Below are positions 3 to 25,861 of a stretch of DNA of 64,000 nucleotides, piece by piece (the stretch's first letter is position 1; the number at the start of each line of letters is the position of its first letter). A program made the position numbers and the translations under genes. The notes beneath the pieces are model-generated. The model made no database searches and had not been told where the DNA came from. It worked only from the letters and a program-made list of their open reading frames with translations. This DNA is from a virus (lineage: Duplodnaviria; Caudoviricetes), in IMG/VR virus record IMGVR_UViG_3300008262_000013; one strand, given 5' to 3'.

Positions 3-557
3 ACTGAAAGTGGTATTGTACAAGAAGAAAAGATTGAACCTTTAACTGTATTTGATGATAGACATCCTTTTCTGAATACAGAATTGCCCGAATATACAGA
101 ACAACTACCGAATAAACGTATGACTACTTTAATTAAAAGATTGAAGATGACTATGAAACTTTATGGTGGTATAGGTCTTTCGGCTAATCAGTGTGGTTTA
201 AAAGATCGTGTATTTGTTATGGGTACAGATCAGTTTCAGATTGCATGTATCAACCCTAAAGTTTTGGAAGTGTCTGAAGAAATTATTAAAGATGTGGAAG
301 GTTGTCTTTCTTTTCCAGCAATGTTTATGAAAATTGAAAGACCTAAATCCGTATTTGCTGAATTTACGGATGAAAACGGACAAGTTCATCAAGAATGGTT
401 TGATGGTTTAACTGCAAGATGTTTCTTACATGAAACTGATCATATGAATGGTATCAAGTATACAAAGTATGTTGGTCCAGTGGCTTTAAAAATGGCCAAA
501 CAAAAACAATTGAAAAAAATTAAAACTGTGAAAAGAAAATTGAAAAATGTCGTATAG
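3..557 (+). CDS. def: Peptide deformylase (5' end runs off the window; frame is open from nt 3)
   Basis: Motifs GIGLSANQCG, EGCLS and HETDHMNG; no stop codon upstream of the called TTG at 84. Confidence 0.93.
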   Translation, partial: TESGIVQEEKIEPLTVFDDRHPFLNTELPEYTEQLPNKRMTTLIKRLKMTMKLYGGIGLSANQCGLKDRVFVMGTDQFQIACINPKVLEVSEEIIKDVEGCLSFPAMFMKIERPKSVFAEFTDENGQVHQEWFDGLTARCFLHETDHMNGIKYTKYVGPVALKMAKQKQLKKIKTVKRKLKNVV

Positions 558-1830
558 TTTTGATCCTAAAGATGATGTAGAAACTCAGTGGAAAAAATGG
601 CAAGAACATAATCCACCAGAATCTTTTACGCATGTAGACGAAAAAGAATTGTGTGAGAAAACGATTGAAGAACTCACATATGTTTCGGCTATGGATGTAA
701 AAGAATATACTTTATTTCAAAAGTGGTGTGAAGTGCAAGATAAATTTCCTACAGAAATCGTAAATGATTTGTGGGAAGGTGAAAAGAAAGTACTTAAAGA
801 TGAAAAACAAAGGCGTGCAATTGAAGAAATAAAATCCAATATTTGGATGCCTAATAGTCCTGAAGATTATTTGACACTTGAACCTGAATTACTTTACACA
901 AGTAAACAAGATGATCTGCCAGAATTGTGGAATACCATAAGAACATTTTCTTCTACGATGAAGAATAATAGTAATATTGGACGCAATTTGAATTTTGTTG
1001 TAAGAGATAAAGTAACAAAAAAATACCTAGGTGTTATCTGTATTAGTTCAGACTTTCTTGATTTGACACCAAGAGATAATTTCATTGGGTGGTCGAGAGA
1101 ATTAAAAACACAAGGTGGTATGATTAACCACACAGCCATCGGATCAACGATTGTACCTTTACAACCATTGGGATATAATTATGTTGGTGGCAAATTGCTT
1201 GCTCTGTTGTGCTTATCCGATCCTGTACAAGAGTTGTGGGAAAAACTTTACGGTGATAAGTTAGTTTCCGTAACAACTACTTCACTTTATGGAAAAACAA
1301 AAGCAGGAGGATTATCACAATATGATAATCTAGATTATTGGCAATCGATGGGATTTACATCAGGTTCAGTTTCTTTTGAACCGCTTGCTGATACACGTTA
1401 TATGATTCGTGATTGGTTAAAAGAAAATCATACACGTAAATACTTTGAATGGTACATAGCAAAGAAACCTTCTGGTCAGCCACATAAACGGGATCATAAG
1501 AATCGTTCATTGAATTTTACATATTCTCAATTGAACATACCAAAAGAGTTAATTCGTTCTGAACATGCAAGAGGAATTTATTTCTCACCACTATATGATA
1601 ATTCATGTGAGTTTCTCCGCGGCGAACATGACGGCAAAGATATGAAAAAACTCTTTGATACAAGTGTAGAGAGCCTAAGTAGTATATGGAAAACAAAACA
1701 TGCTAAGCCAAGAATTAAACAATTGGTAAAGAAAGATAAAGTTTCCTACGATACCCTGTTTTATGACGATCTTATCTATTTGACATGGCAAGAAACAAAA
1801 GATAAATATTTGCCGCAAGTGGGTCGATAA
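547..1830 (+). CDS. DUF4338 / DruA-like protein with predicted GNAT (Mom-like) topology
   Basis: FVVRD..YLGVICISS..RDNFIGW..STIVPLQPLGYNYVGGKLLALLC..VTTTSLYG..SQYD pattern; paralogous to 21609..22724. Confidence 0.65.
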   Translation: MSYSFDPKDDVETQWKKWQEHNPPESFTHVDEKELCEKTIEELTYVSAMDVKEYTLFQKWCEVQDKFPTEIVNDLWEGEKKVLKDEKQRRAIEEIKSNIWMPNSPEDYLTLEPELLYTSKQDDLPELWNTIRTFSSTMKNNSNIGRNLNFVVRDKVTKKYLGVICISSDFLDLTPRDNFIGWSRELKTQGGMINHTAIGSTIVPLQPLGYNYVGGKLLALLCLSDPVQELWEKLYGDKLVSVTTTSLYGKTKAGGLSQYDNLDYWQSMGFTSGSVSFEPLADTRYMIRDWLKENHTRKYFEWYIAKKPSGQPHKRDHKNRSLNFTYSQLNIPKELIRSEHARGIYFSPLYDNSCEFLRGEHDGKDMKKLFDTSVESLSSIWKTKHAKPRIKQLVKKDKVSYDTLFYDDLIYLTWQETKDKYLPQVGR

Positions 1831-6035: not shown

Positions 6036-6851
6036 ATGGAAATACAAATCAAACTTGATGAATTGAAAAAGAATAAACTTTTCGTAGCTACACCAATGTA
6101 TGGTGGCATGAATCATGGCCTCTATGCAAAATCTTGTCTCGACCTTCAAACTTTGATGATTAGATATGGTGTTGATGTTAAGTTTTCTTTTCTTTTCAAC
6201 GAATCACTCATTACAAGAGCAAGAAACTATTTGACGGATGAATTTCTCCGTTCAGATTGTACGCACATGTTGTTTATCGACTCAGATATTCACTTCAATC
6301 CACAAGATGTTTTAGCATTAATGGCTCTCGACAAAGATGTTATTGGTGGTCCTTATCCTAAAAAATCTGTCAATTGGGGTAATATTGCTCACGCAGCTCG
6401 TAAACATACAGAAATGGAACCTAGAGAACTGGAACAATTAGTTGGTGAGTATGTTTTCAATGTTGTAAAAGGCACACAACAATTTTCTGTAACTGAACCA
6501 CTTCAAGTTTTGGAAATTGGAACAGGTTTCATGATGATTAAACGTGATGTTTTTGGAAAACTTGAAAAAGCTTATCCTCAATTGCGTTATAAACCAGATC
6601 ATATTGGACAAGCACACTTTGATGGTTCACGTTACATTCATGCCTATTTTGATACTATCATTGATACTATTGATTCTGCAACAGGCGGTGGATCAGATCG
6701 TTATCTAAGTGAAGATTATATGTTCTGCCAACTGTGGCGTAAGATTGGTGGAGAAATTTATCTCTGTCCTTGGATGAAAACTCAGCATATCGGCACATAT
6801 GCATTTACCGGCAACATGCCAAAGGTTGCTGAACTTACTGGTAGATTGTAA
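6036..6851 (+). CDS. GT-A fold glycosyltransferase-like protein
   Basis: LFVATPMYGG, ESLITRARN, HMLFIDSD (DxD), GTGFMMIKR, YLSEDYMFC. Confidence 0.7.
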   Translation: MEIQIKLDELKKNKLFVATPMYGGMNHGLYAKSCLDLQTLMIRYGVDVKFSFLFNESLITRARNYLTDEFLRSDCTHMLFIDSDIHFNPQDVLALMALDKDVIGGPYPKKSVNWGNIAHAARKHTEMEPRELEQLVGEYVFNVVKGTQQFSVTEPLQVLEIGTGFMMIKRDVFGKLEKAYPQLRYKPDHIGQAHFDGSRYIHAYFDTIIDTIDSATGGGSDRYLSEDYMFCQLWRKIGGEIYLCPWMKTQHIGTYAFTGNMPKVAELTGRL

Positions 6852-6852
6852 G

Positions 6853-7239
6853 ATGGGTTACGATAAAATGTACATAAGCAACGATGAATTTATCGTTGAC
6901 GCTGAAAATGTTGGAGATATATCGATTGGTCGTAAGTATGATGGTAACAAACTAGAATATGGTTTGTTACCTCCTCTTGCTCTTGAAGCTACTGTTGATG
7001 TACTTACATTTGGTGCTCAAAAGTATGAAAGAGACAATTGGAAAAAAGTGCCTGATTCCAAGCGCAGATATTTTGATGCATTAGAACGCCATGTTTGGGC
7101 TTGGAAAAAAGGTGAGAAATTAGATCCTGAATCTGGTAAACATCACTTAGCTCATGCTCTTTGTTGCCTCATGTTTCTATATGAACATGATATACTGTAT
7201 TCTGTTGATGAACAAATTAATTATGGAGTAGAAAAATGA
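6853..7239 (+). CDS. dATP/dGTP diphosphohydrolase-like protein (DUF5664 family)
   Basis: GRKYDGNKLEYGLLP..VLTFGAQKYERDNW..DPESGKHHLAHALCCLMFL; ATG at 6853 preferred over 6799. Confidence 0.8.
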   Translation: MGYDKMYISNDEFIVDAENVGDISIGRKYDGNKLEYGLLPPLALEATVDVLTFGAQKYERDNWKKVPDSKRRYFDALERHVWAWKKGEKLDPESGKHHLAHALCCLMFLYEHDILYSVDEQINYGVEK

Positions 7240-15160: not shown

Positions 15161-17716
15161 ATGAAACAATACTACACCAACGTATCAACATACGGAAGTA
15201 ATATTCTGTTTCGAGGTGTAAAGAACGGTCGGAGAGTTAAGATGAAAATCGAATACGCTCCGACTTTGTTTTTGCCCGTCAATAAAAACACAGAATGGAA
15301 AACGCTCTCTGGAGATAATCTCGAACCTAAAAAGTTTGAGAATATGCGTTCAGCTCGAGATTTCGCCAAAAAATATGAAGATGTACAAAACTTTAAAATA
15401 TTTGGTAACTCTAGTTTTGAATATGCCTTCATTGCTGAAACACAACCAGGAATGATTGACTGGAATATCGATGAACTCAAAATAAGTATTATCGATATTG
15501 AGGTCGGATCAGAAAATGGTTTTCCAGATCCATATAAAGCTACTGAACCAATTACTGCTATCGCTATTCGTAGTTTGAATGGTGACATGGTTGTTTATGG
15601 TTGCGGTGAGTATGATAAAGAAAAAGATGAAACAAATAAAGGTAAAAATGTAACTTACATTAAATGCCGTGATGAATATACATTGTGTAAAACATTTCTA
15701 ACTGATTGGGAAAAAGATTCTCCCGATGTTGTCTCCGGTTGGAACATTAAGTTCTTTGATATTCCTTATTTGGTGAATCGTTTCAATCGTATTCTAGGTG
15801 AAGATAATACTCGAAAACTCTCACCTTGGAATAATGTTTATGCTCGTGAGAAAGTTATTCGTGGTAAAAATGTGACCTCTTACGATCTAACAGGTATAGC
15901 TGTACTCGACTACATTGAACTATACAAGTGGTATGCGCCTGGTGGAAAATCACAAGAATCATATCGCCTTGATAATATTGCTCACGTAGAACTTGGTAAG
16001 AAGAAGATTGATTATTCGGAGTATGATAATCTTCACCAACTTTATCGTTTAAACTTCCAAAAGTTTATTGAGTATAACATTGTTGACGTTGAACTTGTCA
16101 TTGAACTTGAAAACAAATTGAAATTGATTGAACTTGGTTTGACTTTGGCATATGACACAAAAACAAACTATGAAGATATCTTTGCACAAACAAGAATGTG
16201 GGATTCTCTAATCTATTCTTACTTGTTTGAGAAAAATATTATTGTACCACCAAAAATTATAAAAAATAAAACTGAAGCTTTTGAAGGTGCATATGTAAAA
16301 GAACCACAAGTTGGCGCACATGATTGGGTCGCATCATTCGATTTGAATTCTCTGTATCCGCATTTGATGATGCAGTATAACATTTCACCTGAAACATTGA
16401 TTGATCCTGAAGAATACACAGATGAAATGCGTGGTGTTTTAGGACAAGTTGTGACAGTTGATCGTTTAATTAATGGTGACATAGATACTAGTAAATTGAG
16501 CGATGTTACTTTAACTCCTAACGGACAATTTTTTAGAACTGACATACAAGGTTTTCTTCCTAAGATGTTGGAAGAAATGTATGAAGATCGAAAGAAATTT
16601 AAAAAGTTGATGTTGAAATCAAAACAAGATTATGAAAATGAAACTGATGAATCTAAGAAACGTGAAATTAAAAACCTTGTTGCTAGATACGATAATCTAC
16701 AGTTAGCTAAAAAGGTATCACTCAATAGTGCTTATGGTGCTTTGGGTTCTCAATATTTTCGGTTTTATGATTTGCGTATGGCCTTGGGTGTCACCACGGC
16801 TGGTCAACTAAGTATTCGTTGGATTGAAAAAGCATTAAATGGTTACTTGAATAAATTATTAAAAACGAACAATGAAGATTACGTTATCGCCTCAGATACA
16901 GATTCGATTTATCTCCGCCTTGGTGAGCTTGTTAATACGGTGTATAAAGATAAATCGGATCCTAATGCAATCATCTCCTTCATGGATAAAGTCTGCGAAC
17001 AGAAAATACAACCTTTTATTGATAAGAGCTATCAAGACCTTGCTGCGTATGTTCATGCGTACTCCCAAAAAATGCAAATGAAACGTGAAGGACTTTCTGA
17101 CAAAGGAATCTGGACCGCAAAGAAACGATACATTCTGAATGTGTACAACAACGAAGGTGTTCAATATAAAGAACCACAAATCAAAGTGATGGGTCTTGAG
17201 ATGGTCAAATCATCTACGCCTGCTGCGATTCGTGAGAAGATGAAAGAAGTTATTCAGTTGATGATGAAGGGAACAGAAACAGATGTTCAGGAGTTTATTT
17301 TAAACTTCAGAGAACAATTCAAAAAGTTACCACCTGAAGATATTTCTTTTCCTAGAGGTTTGAATGGCTTGACTGAATACTCCGATTCTGTTATGATGTA
17401 TAAGAAAGGTACACCTATTCATGTTCGTGGTGCAATTCTTTACAATCACTATCTGAAACAATATGATTTGGTTAAAAAGTATCCTTTGATACAAGAAGGT
17501 GAGAAACTCAAATTTACCTATCTAAAAGTGCCAAATCATTTTAAAGAAGATGTGATTTCTTATCCTGGTAGATTACCAAAAGAATTTAATTTGGATGACT
17601 ATATTGATTATGAAACACAGTTTAATAAAGCGTTTGTCGAACCCGTCAAAGTTATTTTAGATTGTTTGAGTTGGCAAGTCGAAAAACAAAATTCTATAGA
17701 AAGTTTCTTTGGATAA
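15161..17716 (+). CDS. gp43: Family B DNA polymerase gp43
   Basis: DIEV exonuclease, SFDLNSLYP, KVSLNSAYG, ASDTDS, KKRY; uninterrupted. Confidence 0.98.
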   Translation: MKQYYTNVSTYGSNILFRGVKNGRRVKMKIEYAPTLFLPVNKNTEWKTLSGDNLEPKKFENMRSARDFAKKYEDVQNFKIFGNSSFEYAFIAETQPGMIDWNIDELKISIIDIEVGSENGFPDPYKATEPITAIAIRSLNGDMVVYGCGEYDKEKDETNKGKNVTYIKCRDEYTLCKTFLTDWEKDSPDVVSGWNIKFFDIPYLVNRFNRILGEDNTRKLSPWNNVYAREKVIRGKNVTSYDLTGIAVLDYIELYKWYAPGGKSQESYRLDNIAHVELGKKKIDYSEYDNLHQLYRLNFQKFIEYNIVDVELVIELENKLKLIELGLTLAYDTKTNYEDIFAQTRMWDSLIYSYLFEKNIIVPPKIIKNKTEAFEGAYVKEPQVGAHDWVASFDLNSLYPHLMMQYNISPETLIDPEEYTDEMRGVLGQVVTVDRLINGDIDTSKLSDVTLTPNGQFFRTDIQGFLPKMLEEMYEDRKKFKKLMLKSKQDYENETDESKKREIKNLVARYDNLQLAKKVSLNSAYGALGSQYFRFYDLRMALGVTTAGQLSIRWIEKALNGYLNKLLKTNNEDYVIASDTDSIYLRLGELVNTVYKDKSDPNAIISFMDKVCEQKIQPFIDKSYQDLAAYVHAYSQKMQMKREGLSDKGIWTAKKRYILNVYNNEGVQYKEPQIKVMGLEMVKSSTPAAIREKMKEVIQLMMKGTETDVQEFILNFREQFKKLPPEDISFPRGLNGLTEYSDSVMMYKKGTPIHVRGAILYNHYLKQYDLVKKYPLIQEGEKLKFTYLKVPNHFKEDVISYPGRLPKEFNLDDYIDYETQFNKAFVEPVKVILDCLSWQVEKQNSIESFFG

Positions 17717-18534
17717 TGTTACAAGTAATTTTTCCATTTCTAACAGCAATAGCCTTATCTGGTGTTGCTGCCTATTATTCTGTAATAGGATTGGCTCAAA
17801 TATTTCCAGGTTCGTTTTGGCCTATCGTCATCATGGGGTCAACTTTAGAATTGGCAAAATTAGTAACTGTTTCTTGGTTGTATAATAACTGGAACGAAAC
17901 TATACGTTTAATGCGTTATTATTTTTTTGTTGCAGTTTTATTGTTGATGTTGATCACCTCGATGGGCATTTTTGGTTACCTATCGAAGGCACATTTGGAA
18001 ACGAATGTTGTTTTAGGTGCGAATACAGTTCAACTGAAAACATTACAACAACAAGAAAACATTGTTAAAGAACGGCTTGATTACTTACTTAAAAGAGCTG
18101 GTGATCCTGCAACAGCATCAAGAAAAATTGATAAACAAATACAGGAAGCTCAACAAGAATTAAAAGAAATCAACGAAAAGAAATTGCCTTTACTTTCAGA
18201 AGAAAATAAGTTAGCGGCAGAAATTGGTCCCATCAAGTATATTGCCGAGGCTTTATACACAAAAGATGATCCAAATTTCATAGATAAAGCTGTACGTGCA
18301 GTTATAATGATCATTATTGTTGTTTTTGATCCTCTTGCAATTCTTCTTTTGGTAGCTTCAAATCAAACGTATAGAAAATTAAAAGAGAATAAAGAAACTC
18401 CTACTGAAAGCAAAAAGGCAATTAAAAAGAAAAAGATTGACAATTCGACAGCACCTAGTGTAGAATTGTTTACTAAAGATGATAATGAAGTAATACCTAA
18501 ATCAAAGATTGTTAATATTGGAGAAATGCCATGA
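17716..18534 (+). CDS. Membrane-anchored coiled-coil protein
   Basis: Three N-terminal TM segments, coiled coil, C-terminal TM (IIIVVFDPLAILLL); ATG overlaps gp43 stop. Confidence 0.7.
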   Translation: MLQVIFPFLTAIALSGVAAYYSVIGLAQIFPGSFWPIVIMGSTLELAKLVTVSWLYNNWNETIRLMRYYFFVAVLLLMLITSMGIFGYLSKAHLETNVVLGANTVQLKTLQQQENIVKERLDYLLKRAGDPATASRKIDKQIQEAQQELKEINEKKLPLLSEENKLAAEIGPIKYIAEALYTKDDPNFIDKAVRAVIMIIIVVFDPLAILLLVASNQTYRKLKENKETPTESKKAIKKKKIDNSTAPSVELFTKDDNEVIPKSKIVNIGEMP

Positions 18535-19595
18535 GTTTATTGGAAAAATTGAAGAAAAGTTCAACGATAAAAGAGACTTCCATTCTTGCGAAGTCTGAGT
18601 TTTTTACAGAAAAAGATATGATTCGCACTGAAGTGCCAATGATTAATGTGGCACTTTCGGGTTCACTTGATGGTGGACTAACACCAGGTCTTACGATGTT
18701 TGCTGGACCATCGAAACACTTTAAGACAGCATTTGCATTATTAATGGCATCAGCTTATATGAAAAAATATGAAGATGCTGTTGTACTTTTTTACGACTCT
18801 GAATTCGGTACACCACAAAAATATTTTGAAACCTTCAACATTGACACAGACAGAGTTCTACACACACCTATCACTGACGTTGAAGAATTGAAACATGATA
18901 TTATGAATCAATTGCAAAGTATTACTAAGGGTGATAGAGTCATTATTATTCTTGACTCTATCGGCAACTTGGCATCTAAAAAAGAAATTGAAGATTCTTT
19001 AGAAGGCAAATCTGTTGCTGATATGACTAGAGCTAAACAAATGAAATCTTTGTTTAGAATGATAACACCACATTTAACAATCAAAGATATCCCTATGGTT
19101 GTTGTCAATCATACATACAAAGAAATTGGTATGTTCCCGAAAGACATTGTTGGTGGTGGTACAGGTTCTTACTACTCAGCCGATACAATTTGGATTCTTG
19201 GTCGCCAGCAAGAAAAAACCGGAACAGAAATTACTGGATATAACTTTATCATCAACATTGAAAAGTCCAGATATGTTCGTGAAAAATCTAAGATTCCAAT
19301 TACTGTTTCTTTCGATGGTGGTATTCAAAAATATTCTGGTCTACTTGACATTGCACTTGAAGGAAATTTTGTTGCTAAACCTTCAAATGGTTGGTATGCA
19401 AAAGTTGACCGAGAAACTGGTGAAATAATGGACAAAGTTCGATTTGCAGATACACAGACAAGAGAATTTTGGTCTGATATTCTTACGAATGAATCCTTTA
19501 AAGAATATGTGAGAAAGAGATATGAAATCACTTATAGCAGCATTTTGGGAGATGATAACGAATCTCCTGAATTCCAATCAGACGAAGCGGCCTGA
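18531..19595 (+). CDS. uvsX: UvsX RecA-like recombinase
   Basis: INVALSG, AGPSKHFKT, YDSEFG, DSIGNLAS, VGGGTG. Confidence 0.96.
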   Translation: MSLLEKLKKSSTIKETSILAKSEFFTEKDMIRTEVPMINVALSGSLDGGLTPGLTMFAGPSKHFKTAFALLMASAYMKKYEDAVVLFYDSEFGTPQKYFETFNIDTDRVLHTPITDVEELKHDIMNQLQSITKGDRVIIILDSIGNLASKKEIEDSLEGKSVADMTRAKQMKSLFRMITPHLTIKDIPMVVVNHTYKEIGMFPKDIVGGGTGSYYSADTIWILGRQQEKTGTEITGYNFIINIEKSRYVREKSKIPITVSFDGGIQKYSGLLDIALEGNFVAKPSNGWYAKVDRETGEIMDKVRFADTQTREFWSDILTNESFKEYVRKRYEITYSSILGDDNESPEFQSDEAA

Positions 19596-19887
19596 GTACT
19601 CGGTAGATTACCGAGATGAAAACACCTATTTTACCATACTCAGTGGTAAATATCAAAATGTAACTGTCACCTACTCGCAAACCCAATTCTTTGAAGATGA
19701 GGGTTTTGCGAGGTTAAAATTCAATTACCATGTGATTGAATTCGCAAATTTTACCGAAGAACACTTGACAGACAATCAAGAATTTGTTATAATAATAGGT
19801 GATATACTCCAAGACTATCTTTTAATTGAGGCAAAAAAACTTGAAACAACTAGAAAACGTCATTCTGAAGAACTTGATTTTCAATGA
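19522..19887 (+). CDS. Hypothetical protein between uvsX and gp41 (start uncertain)
   Basis: ORF overlapping both neighbours. Confidence 0.6.
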   Translation: MKSLIAAFWEMITNLLNSNQTKRPEYSVDYRDENTYFTILSGKYQNVTVTYSQTQFFEDEGFARLKFNYHVIEFANFTEEHLTDNQEFVIIIGDILQDYLLIEAKKLETTRKRHSEELDFQ

Positions 19888-21247
19888 GGACTATACAAGA
19901 AAAGTATTGCCGTTCATTAAAGATGAATATTTCTCCGAAAATAATCAACGCAAATTTTTCAGAGAAATAAAAACGTATGTTGAAGAATACAAAAATCTTC
20001 CAACATATGAATCTCTTTTAATTGATTTTACCGAATCAAAAAAACTCACACAAGTTGAAGTGAATGGTTGTGTTGATTTGCTTCGTGAGTTGAATAGTGA
20101 TAAGAATGAAAAGTCGGAAATGGATTGGTTGATTGATCAGACTGAAAAGTTTTGTCAAGATAAAGCCATCTATAATGCAATCATGAACTCTGTTTCTATT
20201 CTTGATAAAAATGGTGAAGATAACAAATCAAAAGGTGAGATACCAAAACTTCTAAGTGATGCATTGGCAGTTTCTTTTGATAATCATATTGGTCACGATT
20301 ATGTAAATGATTCTGATGCTCGATTTGATTTCTATCATAAACAAGAGACAAAGTTACCATTTGATCTAGACCTGTTCAACAAGATCACTAAAGGTGGTCT
20401 TCCAATCAAAACTCTTAACATTGCACTTGCTGGTACTGGTGTTGGTAAATCTTTGTTTATGTGTCACGTTGCGGCTTCTTGTTTATCTCAAGGTAAAAAT
20501 GTATTGTACATTACACTTGAAATGGCTGAAGAAAAGATTGCTGAACGTATTGATGCGAATCTTTTGAATGTCAGTATGGATGAACTAAAGACAATGACGA
20601 AGGATGATTATGAAAGAAAGTTTAATCATCTAAAAACCAAACTCAATGGTAAATTAATTATCAAAGAATATCCAACGGCAGCTGCATCATCGTTGCACTT
20701 CAGAGCCTTGTTGAATGAACTTCATTTGAAAAAGAGTTTTAAACCAGATATTGTCTTTATTGATTATCTGAATATTTGTGCATCATCCAGAATTAAACCT
20801 GGTGCAAATGTAAACAGTTATTCTTATATCAAAGCGATTGCTGAAGAACTAAGAGGTCTTGCTGTTGAGTTTGCTGTGCCAATTGTTTCTGCGACACAAA
20901 CAACTCGTTCTGGTTTTACAAACACCGATCCTGGTCTTGAAGATACTTCAGAGTCTTTTGGTCTGCCTGCTACTGCTGACTTTATGTTTGCACTTATCAG
21001 TACAGAAGAACTAGAACAATTAAATCAAATTATGGTGAAGCAATTGAAGAATCGTTATGGTGATCCGAATTCATTTAAACGATTTGTTATTGGTATTGAT
21101 AGATCGAAAATGAAATTGTATGATGCTGAACCTGATGCACAAAGTGGTCTTGCTGATTCCGGACAACCTGATGATAGTCCTCCATTAAACACATTTGGTA
21201 ATCGTGAAAGTAAATTTAATAAAAATTTCGGTGGTTTAAAAGTATGA
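19841..21247 (+). CDS. gp41: Replicative helicase gp41 (TTG start inferred)
   Basis: AGTGVGKS, YITLEM, IKEYPT, FIDYLN, TQTTRSG, QLKNRY. Confidence 0.96.
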   Translation: MKQLENVILKNLIFNEDYTRKVLPFIKDEYFSENNQRKFFREIKTYVEEYKNLPTYESLLIDFTESKKLTQVEVNGCVDLLRELNSDKNEKSEMDWLIDQTEKFCQDKAIYNAIMNSVSILDKNGEDNKSKGEIPKLLSDALAVSFDNHIGHDYVNDSDARFDFYHKQETKLPFDLDLFNKITKGGLPIKTLNIALAGTGVGKSLFMCHVAASCLSQGKNVLYITLEMAEEKIAERIDANLLNVSMDELKTMTKDDYERKFNHLKTKLNGKLIIKEYPTAAASSLHFRALLNELHLKKSFKPDIVFIDYLNICASSRIKPGANVNSYSYIKAIAEELRGLAVEFAVPIVSATQTTRSGFTNTDPGLEDTSESFGLPATADFMFALISTEELEQLNQIMVKQLKNRYGDPNSFKRFVIGIDRSKMKLYDAEPDAQSGLADSGQPDDSPPLNTFGNRESKFNKNFGGLKV

Positions 21248-21606
21248 AAATAATGTCGCTCGACCAAATACTTTTTGCTTGTTCAACAACTATCGTTCTA
21301 GTTGCAATAGTTTATCATCATGCAGGATTTAAAAATATAAAAGACTGTTATAGAATGTGGCTTACGAAAGAATATTGGACAAACTACAATATTGTAGAAT
21401 TCGCCAGTTGGTTTACAAAAGCAATCATTATTATTCCAGGACTCATATTTGGCATTCAAATATGGTGGCTTTATTTTTTCACATTACTTACAAGTTTAAC
21501 TTTGATTTGGGCTAGCAACAAAAAATTACTACCAACATTAGTTGCCTTTAATACCATGTGGTCTTGGTTAAGTTTGATGGTATTGTCACAACATTTGATA
21601 AATTAA
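21244..21606 (+). CDS. Multi-pass membrane protein
   Basis: Several hydrophobic helices. Confidence 0.65.
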   Translation: MKIMSLDQILFACSTTIVLVAIVYHHAGFKNIKDCYRMWLTKEYWTNYNIVEFASWFTKAIIIIPGLIFGIQIWWLYFFTLLTSLTLIWASNKKLLPTLVAFNTMWSWLSLMVLSQHLIN

Positions 21607-21608
21607 AA

Positions 21609-22724
21609 ATGAATCTAACTAAAGAACAAGCTGTTTATTGTGCGAGTGTTTTCTCGGACTACTTTGATCGGTTTTCCAGAATTGATGAGTACATGCGAGA
21701 ACAGAAATTAAATTCAATGGCCGAAAGGCCATTTGTTTTGCCTGGTATGGGACCTGAAGAAGATTTGTTTACAGACTTCAATATGTCTCCTGCTGATATG
21801 GAATTCGAAGTGATGGAATTGCCACAAGAAAGGTGGGACATTTATTTGAATATGATTTCTTCTCATTCAAATATGACTAGTATACCTGGCCGTTGTTTGA
21901 GACTTGCTGTGTTGGAAAAGAAAACAAATAAGTGGGTTGGTTTCATTCGCCTTGGTTCACCAGTGATTAACTGTAAACCGAGAAATGAAATGTTGGGTCA
22001 AGTGTTCACACAAATTGATGGTGGCGCACAGATGTTTAATCGTTGTGCTATTATGGGTTTTGTAATTGTGCCAGCACAGCCATTTGGTTATAATTATCTT
22101 GGTGGTAAGTTGATGGCTGCGATATGTACAACACATGAAGTTCGTGAAATGTTGGACAAGAAATATAATATGACAACTTGTTTATTTGAAACAACAAGTT
22201 TGTATGGCTCTACAAAAGCAGTCTCTCAATATGATGGTATGAAACCACTCATTCGTCATAAAGGTTTAACAGATAGTGATTTTCTTCCGATGTTACATGG
22301 TGAGACATATACTAACCTGAAAGAGTATATCGAAAATATTATTGGTGAACCACTGGCACCAGAAGGTGCATCAAGTCGAAAGTTGAAAATATCAAACGCC
22401 ATGGTATCACTCATTAACGTTTCTCTAAGAGGAACACCAGAAGGTGATAAGTTTAAACGAACGATTGAAAATGCAAAGAATCTGAATGAACAGAAACGAT
22501 ATTATGTTTCAGATTATGGCTTCAGTAATATGGTTGATTATGTTAATGGAAAAACAACTAAACTGGTTGCTGGTGAAAACTATGAGAAGTTTCATCTGGA
22601 GAATGTAATTGAGTGGTGGAGAAAGAAAGCTGTTAATCGTTATGAAACACTAAAGACAGAAAACAGACTCAGAACTGAAATAGAGGTCTGGACAGGCGAA
22701 AAAGAGATTGACATCATTCGGTAA
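21609..22724 (+). CDS. Second DUF4338/DruA-like (GNAT-like) protein
   Basis: PGRCLRLAV..WVGFIRLGSP..FVIVPAQPFGYNYLGGKLMAAIC..FETTSLYG..SQYDG; aligns by eye with 547..1830. Confidence 0.65.
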   Translation: MNLTKEQAVYCASVFSDYFDRFSRIDEYMREQKLNSMAERPFVLPGMGPEEDLFTDFNMSPADMEFEVMELPQERWDIYLNMISSHSNMTSIPGRCLRLAVLEKKTNKWVGFIRLGSPVINCKPRNEMLGQVFTQIDGGAQMFNRCAIMGFVIVPAQPFGYNYLGGKLMAAICTTHEVREMLDKKYNMTTCLFETTSLYGSTKAVSQYDGMKPLIRHKGLTDSDFLPMLHGETYTNLKEYIENIIGEPLAPEGASSRKLKISNAMVSLINVSLRGTPEGDKFKRTIENAKNLNEQKRYYVSDYGFSNMVDYVNGKTTKLVAGENYEKFHLENVIEWWRKKAVNRYETLKTENRLRTEIEVWTGEKEIDIIR

Positions 22725-22733
22725 CCGTGTTAG

Positions 22734-22761
22734 GATAAATACTCCTAAAACTACTAGGAGT
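22734..22761 (+). promoter_or_regulatory. Late promoter (GATAAATA) overlapping an RBS-sequestering hairpin
   Basis: GATAAATA 22734-41; ACTCCTA(22741-47)/TAGGAGT(22755-61) stem contains the AGGAG of the next gene. Confidence 0.7.
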
Positions 22762-22766
22762 ATTAG

Positions 22767-23831
22767 ATGGCTGATGGAATTTCAGGTGCAGGTGCAGAGA
22801 TTACAGCTCTCGCGGAGAGTTTACAAGCTTATGCATGTGCTACGAGACAATTCATTGGTAAACCACTAACCGATGTTACAGAAATAACTAATAAAACAAT
22901 TGGTGATGCTGAGTGTGATAGACCATTGGATAAATGTTTAAAAGGTTTAAATGCAAATTGGTATCACAGTGTCATAACTACAGCCAATGAAATTTTTAAA
23001 GATGTCAAACCTCAAGGTAAATATATGTTTTACCGTGGTGGAAAATTAGTCGGCGACATTTATAAAGAGTTCGGAAAATTTAGAAAAGAAAGTGGTTTAT
23101 CTGGAGATGATAAATGGAATCCTGCTGACATTTGGATGGCAAAAAAAGGATTTAAATTTGAAAAAGACTGGTCAACACTTAGAGACTATAATCGATATAT
23201 CTATGATGAATTTGCACATAAGAATCTAATTGGAATTTCTTTGAAGTTGGTACCAAAAGGTGATGCACATTCTAAAATATTTAATGATGGTAAACCTCTC
23301 ATCGCAGAATGGAATGGGTACAAAATTAGTGATGATATGTTTAGTTCAAAAGACATATATCTGAAATATAAATCAGAAGGTAAAGAAGGTGAAATACAAC
23401 TTAGAAATTTCTCAAGTCGTCCGGTTACAAGTTCTTGGCAAGGAGAAATTAAAGGTAAAACAGCAGCAGGTGGAAAAATTGGTGGTGGCATTGTAATGAC
23501 TGCTGCATTAGAATCTGGGATACCAAGAACTAAACTAATGATACCTTCGTCTTTCGGTACTCATATTGAAAAACCTAATGATAAGATTCTAAAAGAATTT
23601 GCTACAATGTTTAAAGAATTAAGTAAAAGTAAAAAATCAGTAAAAGATTTAATGACTGAAGCTATGATTTGTCAAAAGAAAGATAAGACTTGGTGGATGT
23701 CAAAATTTTTAGGCATACATTATGTTTATACCATTATAAACGAAAAAAAAGAAAATGAAGTTGTTAAATGGTTGTTTGAATATGGATCATCAGCAACTAA
23801 GAACAGTAGTATTTTTATAAAGTATAGCTAA
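22767..23831 (+). CDS. Putative PD-(D/E)xK restriction-endonuclease-fold protein
   Basis: DKWNPADIW....LIGISLK motif spacing; no recognisable family name. Confidence 0.5.
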   Translation: MADGISGAGAEITALAESLQAYACATRQFIGKPLTDVTEITNKTIGDAECDRPLDKCLKGLNANWYHSVITTANEIFKDVKPQGKYMFYRGGKLVGDIYKEFGKFRKESGLSGDDKWNPADIWMAKKGFKFEKDWSTLRDYNRYIYDEFAHKNLIGISLKLVPKGDAHSKIFNDGKPLIAEWNGYKISDDMFSSKDIYLKYKSEGKEGEIQLRNFSSRPVTSSWQGEIKGKTAAGGKIGGGIVMTAALESGIPRTKLMIPSSFGTHIEKPNDKILKEFATMFKELSKSKKSVKDLMTEAMICQKKDKTWWMSKFLGIHYVYTIINEKKENEVVKWLFEYGSSATKNSSIFIKYS

Positions 23832-25063
23832 TGAAATTCTCAGAATATTTAACCGAATCTAAGAAAGAAGGAGCTAACCTTCACTTAGAACATTTAGAAG
23901 ATAATGTATTAAACAGAGGCATAAAAGGTGCAAGAGAGTCAATTGATTTTCTCCGTGCATTGCGTGATATGTTAGCAGGTCATTCTCAATCCAAAGTGAA
24001 TGTTACTACAAAATGGGATGGTGCTCCTGCTGTAATTTGTGGTACTAATCCAGAAAATGGAAAGTTTTTCGTCGGCACAAAATCAGTTTTTAATAAAGAA
24101 GGTAAATTAAATTATACTGATGATGATATTGATAAGAATCATCCTGGTGGAGGACTAAATGAAAAATTAAAAACAGCACTTGCTTTTCTTTCAAAGTTAG
24201 AAATTAAAGGTATATTACAAGGTGACATGTTATTCACTAAAGGTGATATACAAAAACAAAGTATAGACGGCGAATCATATATTACATTTCAGCCTAATAC
24301 AATTGTTTATGCTGTGCCTACTGATTCTGTTATGGCTTCAAAAATGATGGCAGCTCAAATGGGTATCGTGTTTCATACATCGTATTCTGGTAGAACCATG
24401 GATACATTGAAGGCCTCTTTTAATATTGATATTGGTAATTTAAAACAAACTAAAGATGTTTGGTTTAGAGATGCTTCATTTGTTGATGCCTCTGGTACTG
24501 CAACATTTACTGAAACAGAAACTAAGTTAATTACGAATGTTCTATCTCAAGCAGGCAGAGTATTTCAAACAATCAATCCTCTAGTTCTAAATAGAATATC
24601 TTCTTCAGATATTTTAAATACACAAATTAAAACATTTAATAATACGAAAGTCAGAGCAGGTCAAAAAATAACTAACACTCGAACACATGTTACAGAATTG
24701 ATTCGTTGGGTAGAAGATAGGTTGAATAAAGAAATTCTTGCTGCAAAGAAAGAAGATACGAGGAAAAAAAGAATCGCAGAAAAATCTGAACTGATTAGAT
24801 TTTACAGAAGTAGTGCATCTCAACTTGCGGCAATTTTTGACTTAATGAACTTAATTGTAGACGCCAAGATAATGATAGTCAGAAAATTAGAATCTATAAA
24901 ATCTTCAGTAAGTACTTTTGTAAATACTGAAGATGGTTTCAAAGTTACTGGTCCAGAAGGTTTTGTTGCAGTAGATAGATTAAGTGGTGGTGCATTGAAA
25001 CTTATCGATAGAATGGAATTTTCGCAACAAAACTTTAATGCCGCAAAGAATTGGAGTAAATAA
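23831..25063 (+). CDS. DUF6267-like ligase/capping-family nucleotidyltransferase with capsid-targeting-like leader
   Basis: MKFSEYLTE leader; TTKWDGAP (KxDG motif I), QGDMLF, EGFVAV, ALKLIDR. Confidence 0.6.
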   Translation: MKFSEYLTESKKEGANLHLEHLEDNVLNRGIKGARESIDFLRALRDMLAGHSQSKVNVTTKWDGAPAVICGTNPENGKFFVGTKSVFNKEGKLNYTDDDIDKNHPGGGLNEKLKTALAFLSKLEIKGILQGDMLFTKGDIQKQSIDGESYITFQPNTIVYAVPTDSVMASKMMAAQMGIVFHTSYSGRTMDTLKASFNIDIGNLKQTKDVWFRDASFVDASGTATFTETETKLITNVLSQAGRVFQTINPLVLNRISSSDILNTQIKTFNNTKVRAGQKITNTRTHVTELIRWVEDRLNKEILAAKKEDTRKKRIAEKSELIRFYRSSASQLAAIFDLMNLIVDAKIMIVRKLESIKSSVSTFVNTEDGFKVTGPEGFVAVDRLSGGALKLIDRMEFSQQNFNAAKNWSK

Positions 25064-25471: not shown

Positions 25472-25861
25472 ATGGCTTATTCTAGTCAATTGATGGATCA
25501 CTATGAGAATCCACGAAACGTAGGAAAGTTAGATACAAGTGACACGACTGTTGGTACAGGATTAGTTGGTGCGCCAGCTTGCGGTGACGTTTTAAAGTTG
25601 CAAATTAAAGTTGATGACGGAGTAATTACTGATGCGAAATTTAAGACGTATGGTTGTGGCTCGGCGATTGCATCGTCGTCGCTTGTCACCGAGTGGGTTA
25701 AAGGCAAGACAATTGATGAAGCGATGGCGATCAAGAATACCCAAATTGCTGAGGAACTTGCATTACCACCAGTCAAAATTCATTGTTCGATTCTGGCGGA
25801 AGATGCAATCAAAGCAGCTATAAAAGATTATAAAGATAAAAATTTAGCAAAGGCAGCTTGA
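25472..25861 (+). CDS. iscU: Fe-S cluster scaffold IscU
   Basis: DHYENPRNVG, GAPACGD, GCGSAIAS, LPPVKIHCS. Confidence 0.97.
   Translation: MAYSSQLMDHYENPRNVGKLDTSDTTVGTGLVGAPACGDVLKLQIKVDDGVITDAKFKTYGCGSAIASSSLVTEWVKGKTIDEAMAIKNTQIAEELALPPVKIHCSILAEDAIKAAIKDYKDKNLAKAA

Follow-up and report, generated by a model that had tools for sequence, protein, structure and literature searches.

DruA2 and its place among replication genes

Examining a 64,000-nucleotide stretch of viral DNA (Duplodnaviria; Caudoviricetes; IMG/VR record IMGVR_UViG_3300008262_000013), hereafter the window, we concentrated on positions 21609-23831, where the gene of a DruA/DUF4338-family protein of 371 amino acids (aa), here called DruA2, is followed by the gene of a 354-aa protein, here called X354 (Table 1). 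All genes in the first 60 kb of the window lie on the + strand, and the G+C content is ~34%. The region around 21609-23831 encodes the replication module of a marine T4-like myovirus, with genes for a sliding clamp and clamp-loader subunits upstream of the polymerase, UvsX and gp41 stretch; the closest isolates are Pelagibacter phage HTVC008M and marine cyanomyoviruses (Kyanoviridae). An earlier note on this DNA proposed that DruA2 and its paralogue DruA1, as two GNAT-like subunits or specificities, modify progeny DNA, and that the nuclease-like product of the next gene removes unmodified host or competitor DNA.

Table 1. Features at and around the DruA2-X354 locus, in window coordinates
Feature	Position	Strand	Matches and remarks
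DruA1, 427-aa DruA/DUF4338-family GNAT-like protein, first paralogue	547..1830	+	PF14236 1.3e-21; PADLOC DruA 1.3e-20
Family-B DNA polymerase	15161-17716	+	upstream of UvsX
UvsX recombinase	18531-19595	+	between polymerase and gp41
gp41-type DnaB-like replicative helicase	19826..21247	+	Pfam DnaB_C 1.1e-21; phrog_19 3.3e-129
120-aa open reading frame (ORF) between gp41 and DruA2	21244..21606	+	no Pfam/PHROG match
DruA2, 371-aa DruA/DUF4338-family protein	21609..22724	+	PF14236 7.9e-9; phrog_19197 2.4e-141, full length; PADLOC DruA 2.3e-10
ATAAATA, T4-type late-promoter-like -10 motif	22735..22741	+	10 nucleotides (nt) after DruA2 stop
9-bp hairpin (ATACTCCTA / TAGGAGTAT) pairing the GGAG ribosome-binding site of X354	22739..22763	+	RNA fold -13.3 kcal/mol, z -3.0
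X354, 354-aa protein, phrog_1462 / cyanophage T4-GC 533 family, putative nuclease signature	22767..23831	+	phrog_1462 5.5e-51
DUF6267 protein, 410 aa, ligase-like nucleotidyltransferase signature	23831..25063	+	Pfam PF19782 1.5e-112; start overlaps X354 stop

The DruA2 reading frame opens at a GTG (21558-22724) and contains an internal ATG at 21609; the first residue of the PHROG profile match coincides with this ATG, and the 371-aa form is therefore the likely product. DruA2 and DruA1 both pass the Pfam and PADLOC thresholds for DruA, with PF14236 bit scores of 35.5 and 77.5, respectively (cut-off 27), DruA1 covering positions 48-297 of the profile and DruA2 only positions 59-188 of 297. By BLASTP the two proteins are 41% identical over 147 aa (E 2e-25), and the alignment contains the motifs VPAQPFGYNYLGGKL / VPLQPLGYNYVGGKL and TTSLYGSTKA--VSQYD / TTSLYGKTKAGGLSQYD, while their C-terminal halves align weakly. 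The similarity is far above chance and DruA2 is a diverged paralogue of 547-1830, as the earlier note had recognized from these motifs; it was also right in placing the gene after the helicase region, gp41 being followed by the 120-aa ORF and then by DruA2. Residues invariant in DruA2 include G94, G111, S117, R125, Q157-P-x-G160-x-N162-Y, G165-G-K167, S197-L and Y208-D209. The pelagiphages HTVC008M and Mosig encode proteins 57-60% identical to DruA1. Cyanophages carry the DruA2 type only, Mosig the DruA1 type only and HTVC008M both; since each type occurs alone, the two do not need each other and the proposal that they form two subunits is unlikely. Longer, fused versions of DruA2 were sought without success, which is weak evidence. 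DruA-like GNAT genes of marine T4-like phages, pelagiphages and cyanophages together, make up more than 6000 database clusters. The DruA family in marine phages is not new, because DUF4338 has already been described as a GNAT (PMC10853773), DruA-like proteins of Synechococcus phages have been noted from structure (10.1101/2025.08.05.668817) and the S-SCSM2R homologue, which is 50% identical to DruA2, has been annotated 'methylcarbamoylase mom' (PMC12801897).

DruA2 was always found within the replisome gene cluster, placed differently in each lineage. Apart from the intervening 120-aa ORF, it stands directly after gp41 in the window, as it does in ~125 IMG/VR loci, and the gp41 stop often overlaps the DruA2 start; in HTVC008M it directly follows the polymerase, and in S-SCSM2R, S-SSM7, S-CAM9, S-T4, S-SM2 and S-CREM1 it lies between the clamp-loader genes gp44 and gp62. 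It is thus often translationally coupled to gp41 or gp62. Outside phages, a contig of a marine proteobacterial single-cell genome (L068:1160-2911) encodes a solitary fusion of ParB_N with a DruA domain (584 aa), which is surrounded by genes of ordinary metabolism (formate dehydrogenase, Nuo subunits) in a 10-kb locus devoid of further Druantia genes; a DruA domain fused to DndF has also been reported (PMC10853773). The replisome nesting and the ParB_N and DndF fusions point to DNA-related work that would be independent of Druantia. No protein of the Druantia partners DruB-E was found in the window, where the neighbours of DruA2 are gp41, the 120-aa ORF, X354 and DUF6267. As for DruE, the helicase whose absence the earlier note had remarked on, none of the five window ORFs of at least 500 aa matches it, four being without a PADLOC match and the fifth being the DNA polymerase. 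Membership in Druantia type I was rejected on the absence of DruB, DruC, DruD and DruE: the DruA copies of the window resemble DruA of that system in passing the family thresholds and differ from it in being phage-encoded, inside a replication cluster and without DruB-E, with DruA2 matching only part of the profile.

To characterize the fold, an AlphaFold (AF2) model of DruA2 was made from 30 diverse homologues (mean predicted local distance difference test score, pLDDT, 86.5) and compared with 48,161 solved chains. Of these, 58 reached Z>=8, and all 50 among the matches listed have the GNAT fold, covering model residues 60-323. Rank 1 was Mom of phage Mu (8bv8_B; Z 10.1, root-mean-square deviation 3.7, 168/202 residues aligned), followed by generic GNATs at Z 9-9.8 with ~140 residues aligned; FemA scored Z 8.9. 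According to the model, DruA2 is a GNAT-fold protein extended by helices at both its N- and C-terminal ends, in keeping with the GNAT likeness claimed earlier. The invariant Q157-P-F-G160-Y-N162 falls at the predicted beta4-alpha3 junction, the acyl-CoA pyrophosphate site of GNATs, with N in place of the last G/A of Q/R-x-x-G-x-G/A; this motif does not distinguish between acyl-CoA and aminoacyl-tRNA as the donor. Phage Mu Mom, also a GNAT, modifies adenine of double-stranded DNA with the help of glycyl-tRNA and has the catalytic residues R111, S124, D149 and R151 (PMC13219725), and the invariant S117, R125, S197 and D209 of DruA2 are only candidates for their equivalents. Like Mom, DruA2 is phage-encoded and is modelled as a GNAT core with added helices. 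The two differ in that they share no sequence or profile similarity, that DruA2 is 130-140 aa longer, and that Mom is a late gene under its own Com control whereas DruA2 sits among early/middle replication genes. The likeness, as judged on the model, is structural only, without sequence homology, and makes a DNA-modifying role for DruA2 plausible.

The leader and the exchanged gene downstream of DruA2

From the DruA2 stop to the X354 ATG at 22767 there are 42 nt, one fewer than previously counted. Of the 6 copies in 64 kb, the ATAAATA within this gap is the only one on the + strand from 15 to 27 kb. Among relatives, 65 of 69 distinct upstream regions have kept the motif, whatever gene follows. 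Its agreement with the T4 late-promoter consensus suggests that it functions as a promoter. The arms of the hairpin that pairs the ribosome-binding site co-vary across relatives (CTCC/GGAG, CCTA/TAGG, CCTG/CAGG).

The gene behind this leader changes. The position between DruA2 and DUF6267 (22725-23831 in the window; loci L003-L149 among relatives) was never empty in 90 loci. Its products, of 213-584 aa, fall into 16 sequence clusters: eight belong to the X354 superfamily and eight are unrelated to X354 by hidden Markov model searches and hhalign. The flanking gp41, DruA2 and DUF6267 stay 62-96% identical while the gene at the position changes, and where the DruA2 of a relative is 70-88% identical, the gene after it often bears no relation to X354. 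Such exchange would sooner be expected of a late or packaged effector that changes fast and is specific to the host than of a restriction partner fixed to DruA. In some relatives a GIY-YIG/NUMOD3 (SegE-like) homing-endonuclease gene lies between the X354 homologue and DUF6267 (L018:1784-2425, L029:3169-3810, L030 and L031).

X354, DUF6267 and the cyanophage late cluster

The X354 family is phage-only, with 610 cluster representatives at E<=1e-3; most members carry ~90 extra N-terminal residues, which X354 of the window lacks. Its profile (A1) matches the GC 533 proteins of P-SSM7, S-SSM5 and S-CREM1 with E of 1e-96 to 1e-112, values of 2e-110 and 2e-96 among them. X354 contains the motifs NPADIW (residues 118-123) and IGISLK (155-160), and among 92 homologues, down to 26% identity, the residues E17, K116, P119, D121, S158, L159, K160 and R213 are invariant. 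In the AF2 model (pLDDT 95.9) a strand begins with the D and the following core strand closes with SxK, a helix being inserted between the motif strands. We take this motif spacing and strand placement to resemble those of Cfr10I and NgoMIV, SxK-variant PD-(D/E)xK enzymes. On the strength of the invariant E...PD...SxK residues, X354 is probably a metal-dependent nuclease.

The fold searches did not bear this out. Foldseek of the model against the PDB gave a best E of 0.21, and VIA-align (a wide search and a second look) a best Z of 5.5, over the N-terminal helices only; against BFVD only uncharacterised cyanophage and Campylobacter-phage proteins were matched. Sequence searches of PDB chains with DruA2, with X354 (also as profile A1) and with DUF6267 (also as profile A4) returned nothing below E 0.4. 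A Pfam scan of 92 X354-family members at E<=5 yielded no family common to more than three members, and neither X354 nor DUF6267 matched NCBIfam or PADLOC. The nuclease-like PAD..ISLK gene of the earlier note thus stands as to its residues, E17, P119-x-D121 and S158-x-K160 being invariant, while its nuclease fold was not confirmed by the fold search. X354 resembles PD-(D/E)xK restriction endonucleases of the SxK variant (Cfr10I/NgoMIV type) in its invariant E...P-x-D...S-x-K, and MspI/HpaII in weak matches, and differs from these enzymes in having no significant fold or profile match and no partner methylase or modifier that co-occurs with it.

The recurrent partner of X354 is DUF6267, not DruA. 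Almost every related locus has DUF6267 after the X354 position, and the same order recurs in cyanophages as GC533-GC71. Moreover, a natural protein of 872 aa (P0250) is a fusion of DUF6267 and X354, and another of 1060 aa (P0345) joins a weak RNA-ligase-like region (RNA_ligase match, E 0.0098, in its N-terminal part) to a cytidylyltransferase-like domain and X354, a domain make-up that mirrors the cyanophage gene order GC533-GC71-GC190, GC190 being NMNAT-like. DUF6267 itself has invariant K61-x-D63-G64 (KxDG) and E376-G377 in 11 sequences down to 30% identity, with a long insert between them; these motifs resemble those of covalent nucleotidyltransferases such as ligases. No Pfam ligase was matched, profile A4 found no PDB ligase, and a protein atlas based on a protein language model returned nothing informative for DUF6267. 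With X354 corresponding to GC 533 and DUF6267 to GC 71, the locus resembles the cyanophage late virion-associated cluster GC 533 / GC 71 / GC 190 (NMNAT-like 'cytidyltransferase'); it differs in that no NMNAT-like gene directly follows in the window and X354 is without the ~90-aa extension. In cyanophage S-SCSM1, whose virion proteins were identified by mass spectrometry of CsCl-purified particles, the X354 homologue (ORF90) is recorded, together with its neighbours, among the virion proteins (PMC9602691). By analogy, the late unit opened by X354 is probably virion-associated in the window phage as well.

Two proposed modules and the rival readings

The association of DruA2 with X354 was examined by profile searches of nine whole phage records for DruA and X354, searches that begin with a loose first pass, so that very divergent homologues could be missed. 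X354 was absent from 6 of the 7 DruA-positive isolates, P-SSM7 and S-SSM5 carried X354 and no DruA, and S-CREM1 was the only record with both, the two genes being 9 kb apart. The co-occurrence check that the earlier note had suggested thus goes against its modification/self-nonself pair. DruA2 and X354 adjoin only in the clade of the window. The pairing is not supported because the two families mostly occur apart, because the steady partner of X354 in synteny and fusion is DUF6267, because the position after DruA2 holds many unrelated genes in close relatives, because a conserved late-promoter-like ATAAATA separates the two genes, because DruA2 occupies three replication-cluster sites, in cyanophages and HTVC008M distant from X354 homologues, and because the S-SCSM1 homologue of X354 is recorded as a virion protein. 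What speaks for the pair, in which both paralogues would modify progeny DNA and X354 would act as a restriction-type nuclease on unmodified host or competitor DNA, is the adjacency of the genes in an order conserved in the clade, the nearness of the DruA2 fold to Mom together with the invariant PD...SxK of X354, and the sensible timing of an early modifier and a late nuclease. Given the dissociation of the families, the exchange of the gene after DruA2 and the tie of X354 to DUF6267, we consider this reading very improbable, and the specific modification/restriction story is to be dropped.

From what was observed of the family memberships, the folds, the synteny, the fusions, the separate occurrence of the DruA and X354 families and the conserved promoter motif and hairpin, we estimate at about 60% the probability that two independent modules abut here, DruA2 closing the replication run and X354 opening a separate late unit. 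DruA2 would then be the last gene of the run of polymerase, UvsX and gp41 and would act without a Druantia partner, possibly acylating or aminoacylating DNA, or else a target that is bound to replicating DNA, in the manner of Mom with its glycyl-tRNA. By analogy with T4 late genes, the X354 unit would begin at ATAAATA, and the hairpin would hide the ribosome-binding site of X354 in read-through transcripts, so that X354 would be made only late. X354 would be a late gene whose product is packaged in the window phage and has nuclease activity.

Several points weigh against this account of two modules and their functions. The order gp41-DruA2-X354-DUF6267 is conserved in at least 45 loci of the window's clade, in a set of IMG/VR loci skewed to close relatives, and a functional link between DruA2 and X354 could exist in that clade; very divergent homologues that the loose first pass could have missed are a further point. 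The late timing and the packaging of X354 are themselves extrapolated from T4 and S-SCSM1. Mom is only tied with ordinary GNATs, which lie within 1 Z unit of it, and a comparison of the DruA alignment with the sequence of Mu Mom by hhalign shows no relation (probability 0.13, E 0.44). DruA2 could just as well act on a protein or a small molecule. For X354, resemblance to solved nucleases is weak, the best matches of this kind being MspI (Z 4.1 with 167 residues aligned) and the Cas4-family ACE1 (Z 4.3), and its nearest named clusters in the protein atlas, RE_HpaII and RE_HaeIII at a score of 0.88, are only a lead.

For DruA2, these points bear on two alternatives about its target. We put forward only tentatively, as an idea well short of even odds, that the replisome-nested DruA-like GNATs are replication-coupled, Mom-like DNA acyl- or aminoacyltransferases which install an undescribed base modification, the two paralogues representing two specificities. 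That DruA2 does not act on DNA, and instead acylates a replisome or host protein, a nucleotide or a defence signal, or serves as a decoy or inhibitor of host DruA systems, appears slightly less likely again. Proteins or small molecules are the substrates of most GNATs, and enzymes of that kind score nearly as high as Mom against the DruA2 model; the location of Q157-x-x-G160-x-N162 at the acyl-CoA site and the lack of sequence homology to Mom likewise agree with a target other than DNA, whereas the constant replisome nesting, the frequent translational coupling to gp41 or gp62 and the fusions of the DruA domain to ParB_N and DndF (PMC10853773) argue for DNA.

For X354, the alternative that it is no nuclease but a protein of the virion or another late product, its conserved polar residues being used for binding or for some other chemistry, carries appreciable weight while being the less likely choice. 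A model of pLDDT 96 without a solved nuclease match above Z 4.3, the absence of Pfam, NCBIfam or PADLOC matches for any of 92 family members and the homologue in purified virions (PMC9602691) are all consistent with it. It has to contend with the invariance of E17, P119-x-D121 and S158-x-K160 in an arrangement that we take to be that of PD-(D/E)xK enzymes, with restriction endonucleases as the nearest named atlas clusters and with the fusion of the family to ligase-like and nucleotidyltransferase-like domains. Free-standing homing endonucleases abound in T4-like phages, and the variability of the position, along with the GIY-YIG/NUMOD3 gene present as an extra ORF in some relatives, would suit selfish insertions of that type, X354 and the other genes at its position included. 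We ranked this reading low and consider it improbable: X354 keeps a stable synteny with DUF6267 across distant cyanophages and is fused to it, its family is detected in virions, and one conserved promoter-and-hairpin leader precedes a never-empty position whatever the cassette.

DruA/DUF4338 names a defence component, and phage copies among replisome genes, with Mom as the nearest solved structure, give a testable DNA-acylation hypothesis for cultured pelagiphages and cyanophages; if replication-coupled DNA acylation were true, it would hint at the role of DruA in Druantia type I. On the late side, a conserved promoter-plus-hairpin leader appears to drive a position swapped among many unrelated families beside a ligase-like gene. 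X354 belongs to an abundant family that is folded with confidence yet has no convincing solved match. The swapped position and this family are both good targets for structural and functional work.

Other genes of the window complete the setting. The 120-aa ORF between gp41 and DruA2 was detected by tblastn in 1 of 149 related loci (L038); absent from most relatives, it has either been inserted recently or is a small gene that evolves fast. At 6799-7239, immediately upstream of the gene for the sliding clamp, a 146-aa protein carries the N-terminal domain of dATP/dGTP diphosphohydrolase (PF18909, 4e-34), a domain linked to the editing of nucleotide pools by which phages replace or modify DNA bases. 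Host-like auxiliary genes encode a peptide deformylase at 3-557 (8.8e-36) and a NifU/IscU-type scaffold at 25472-25861 (8.8e-53).

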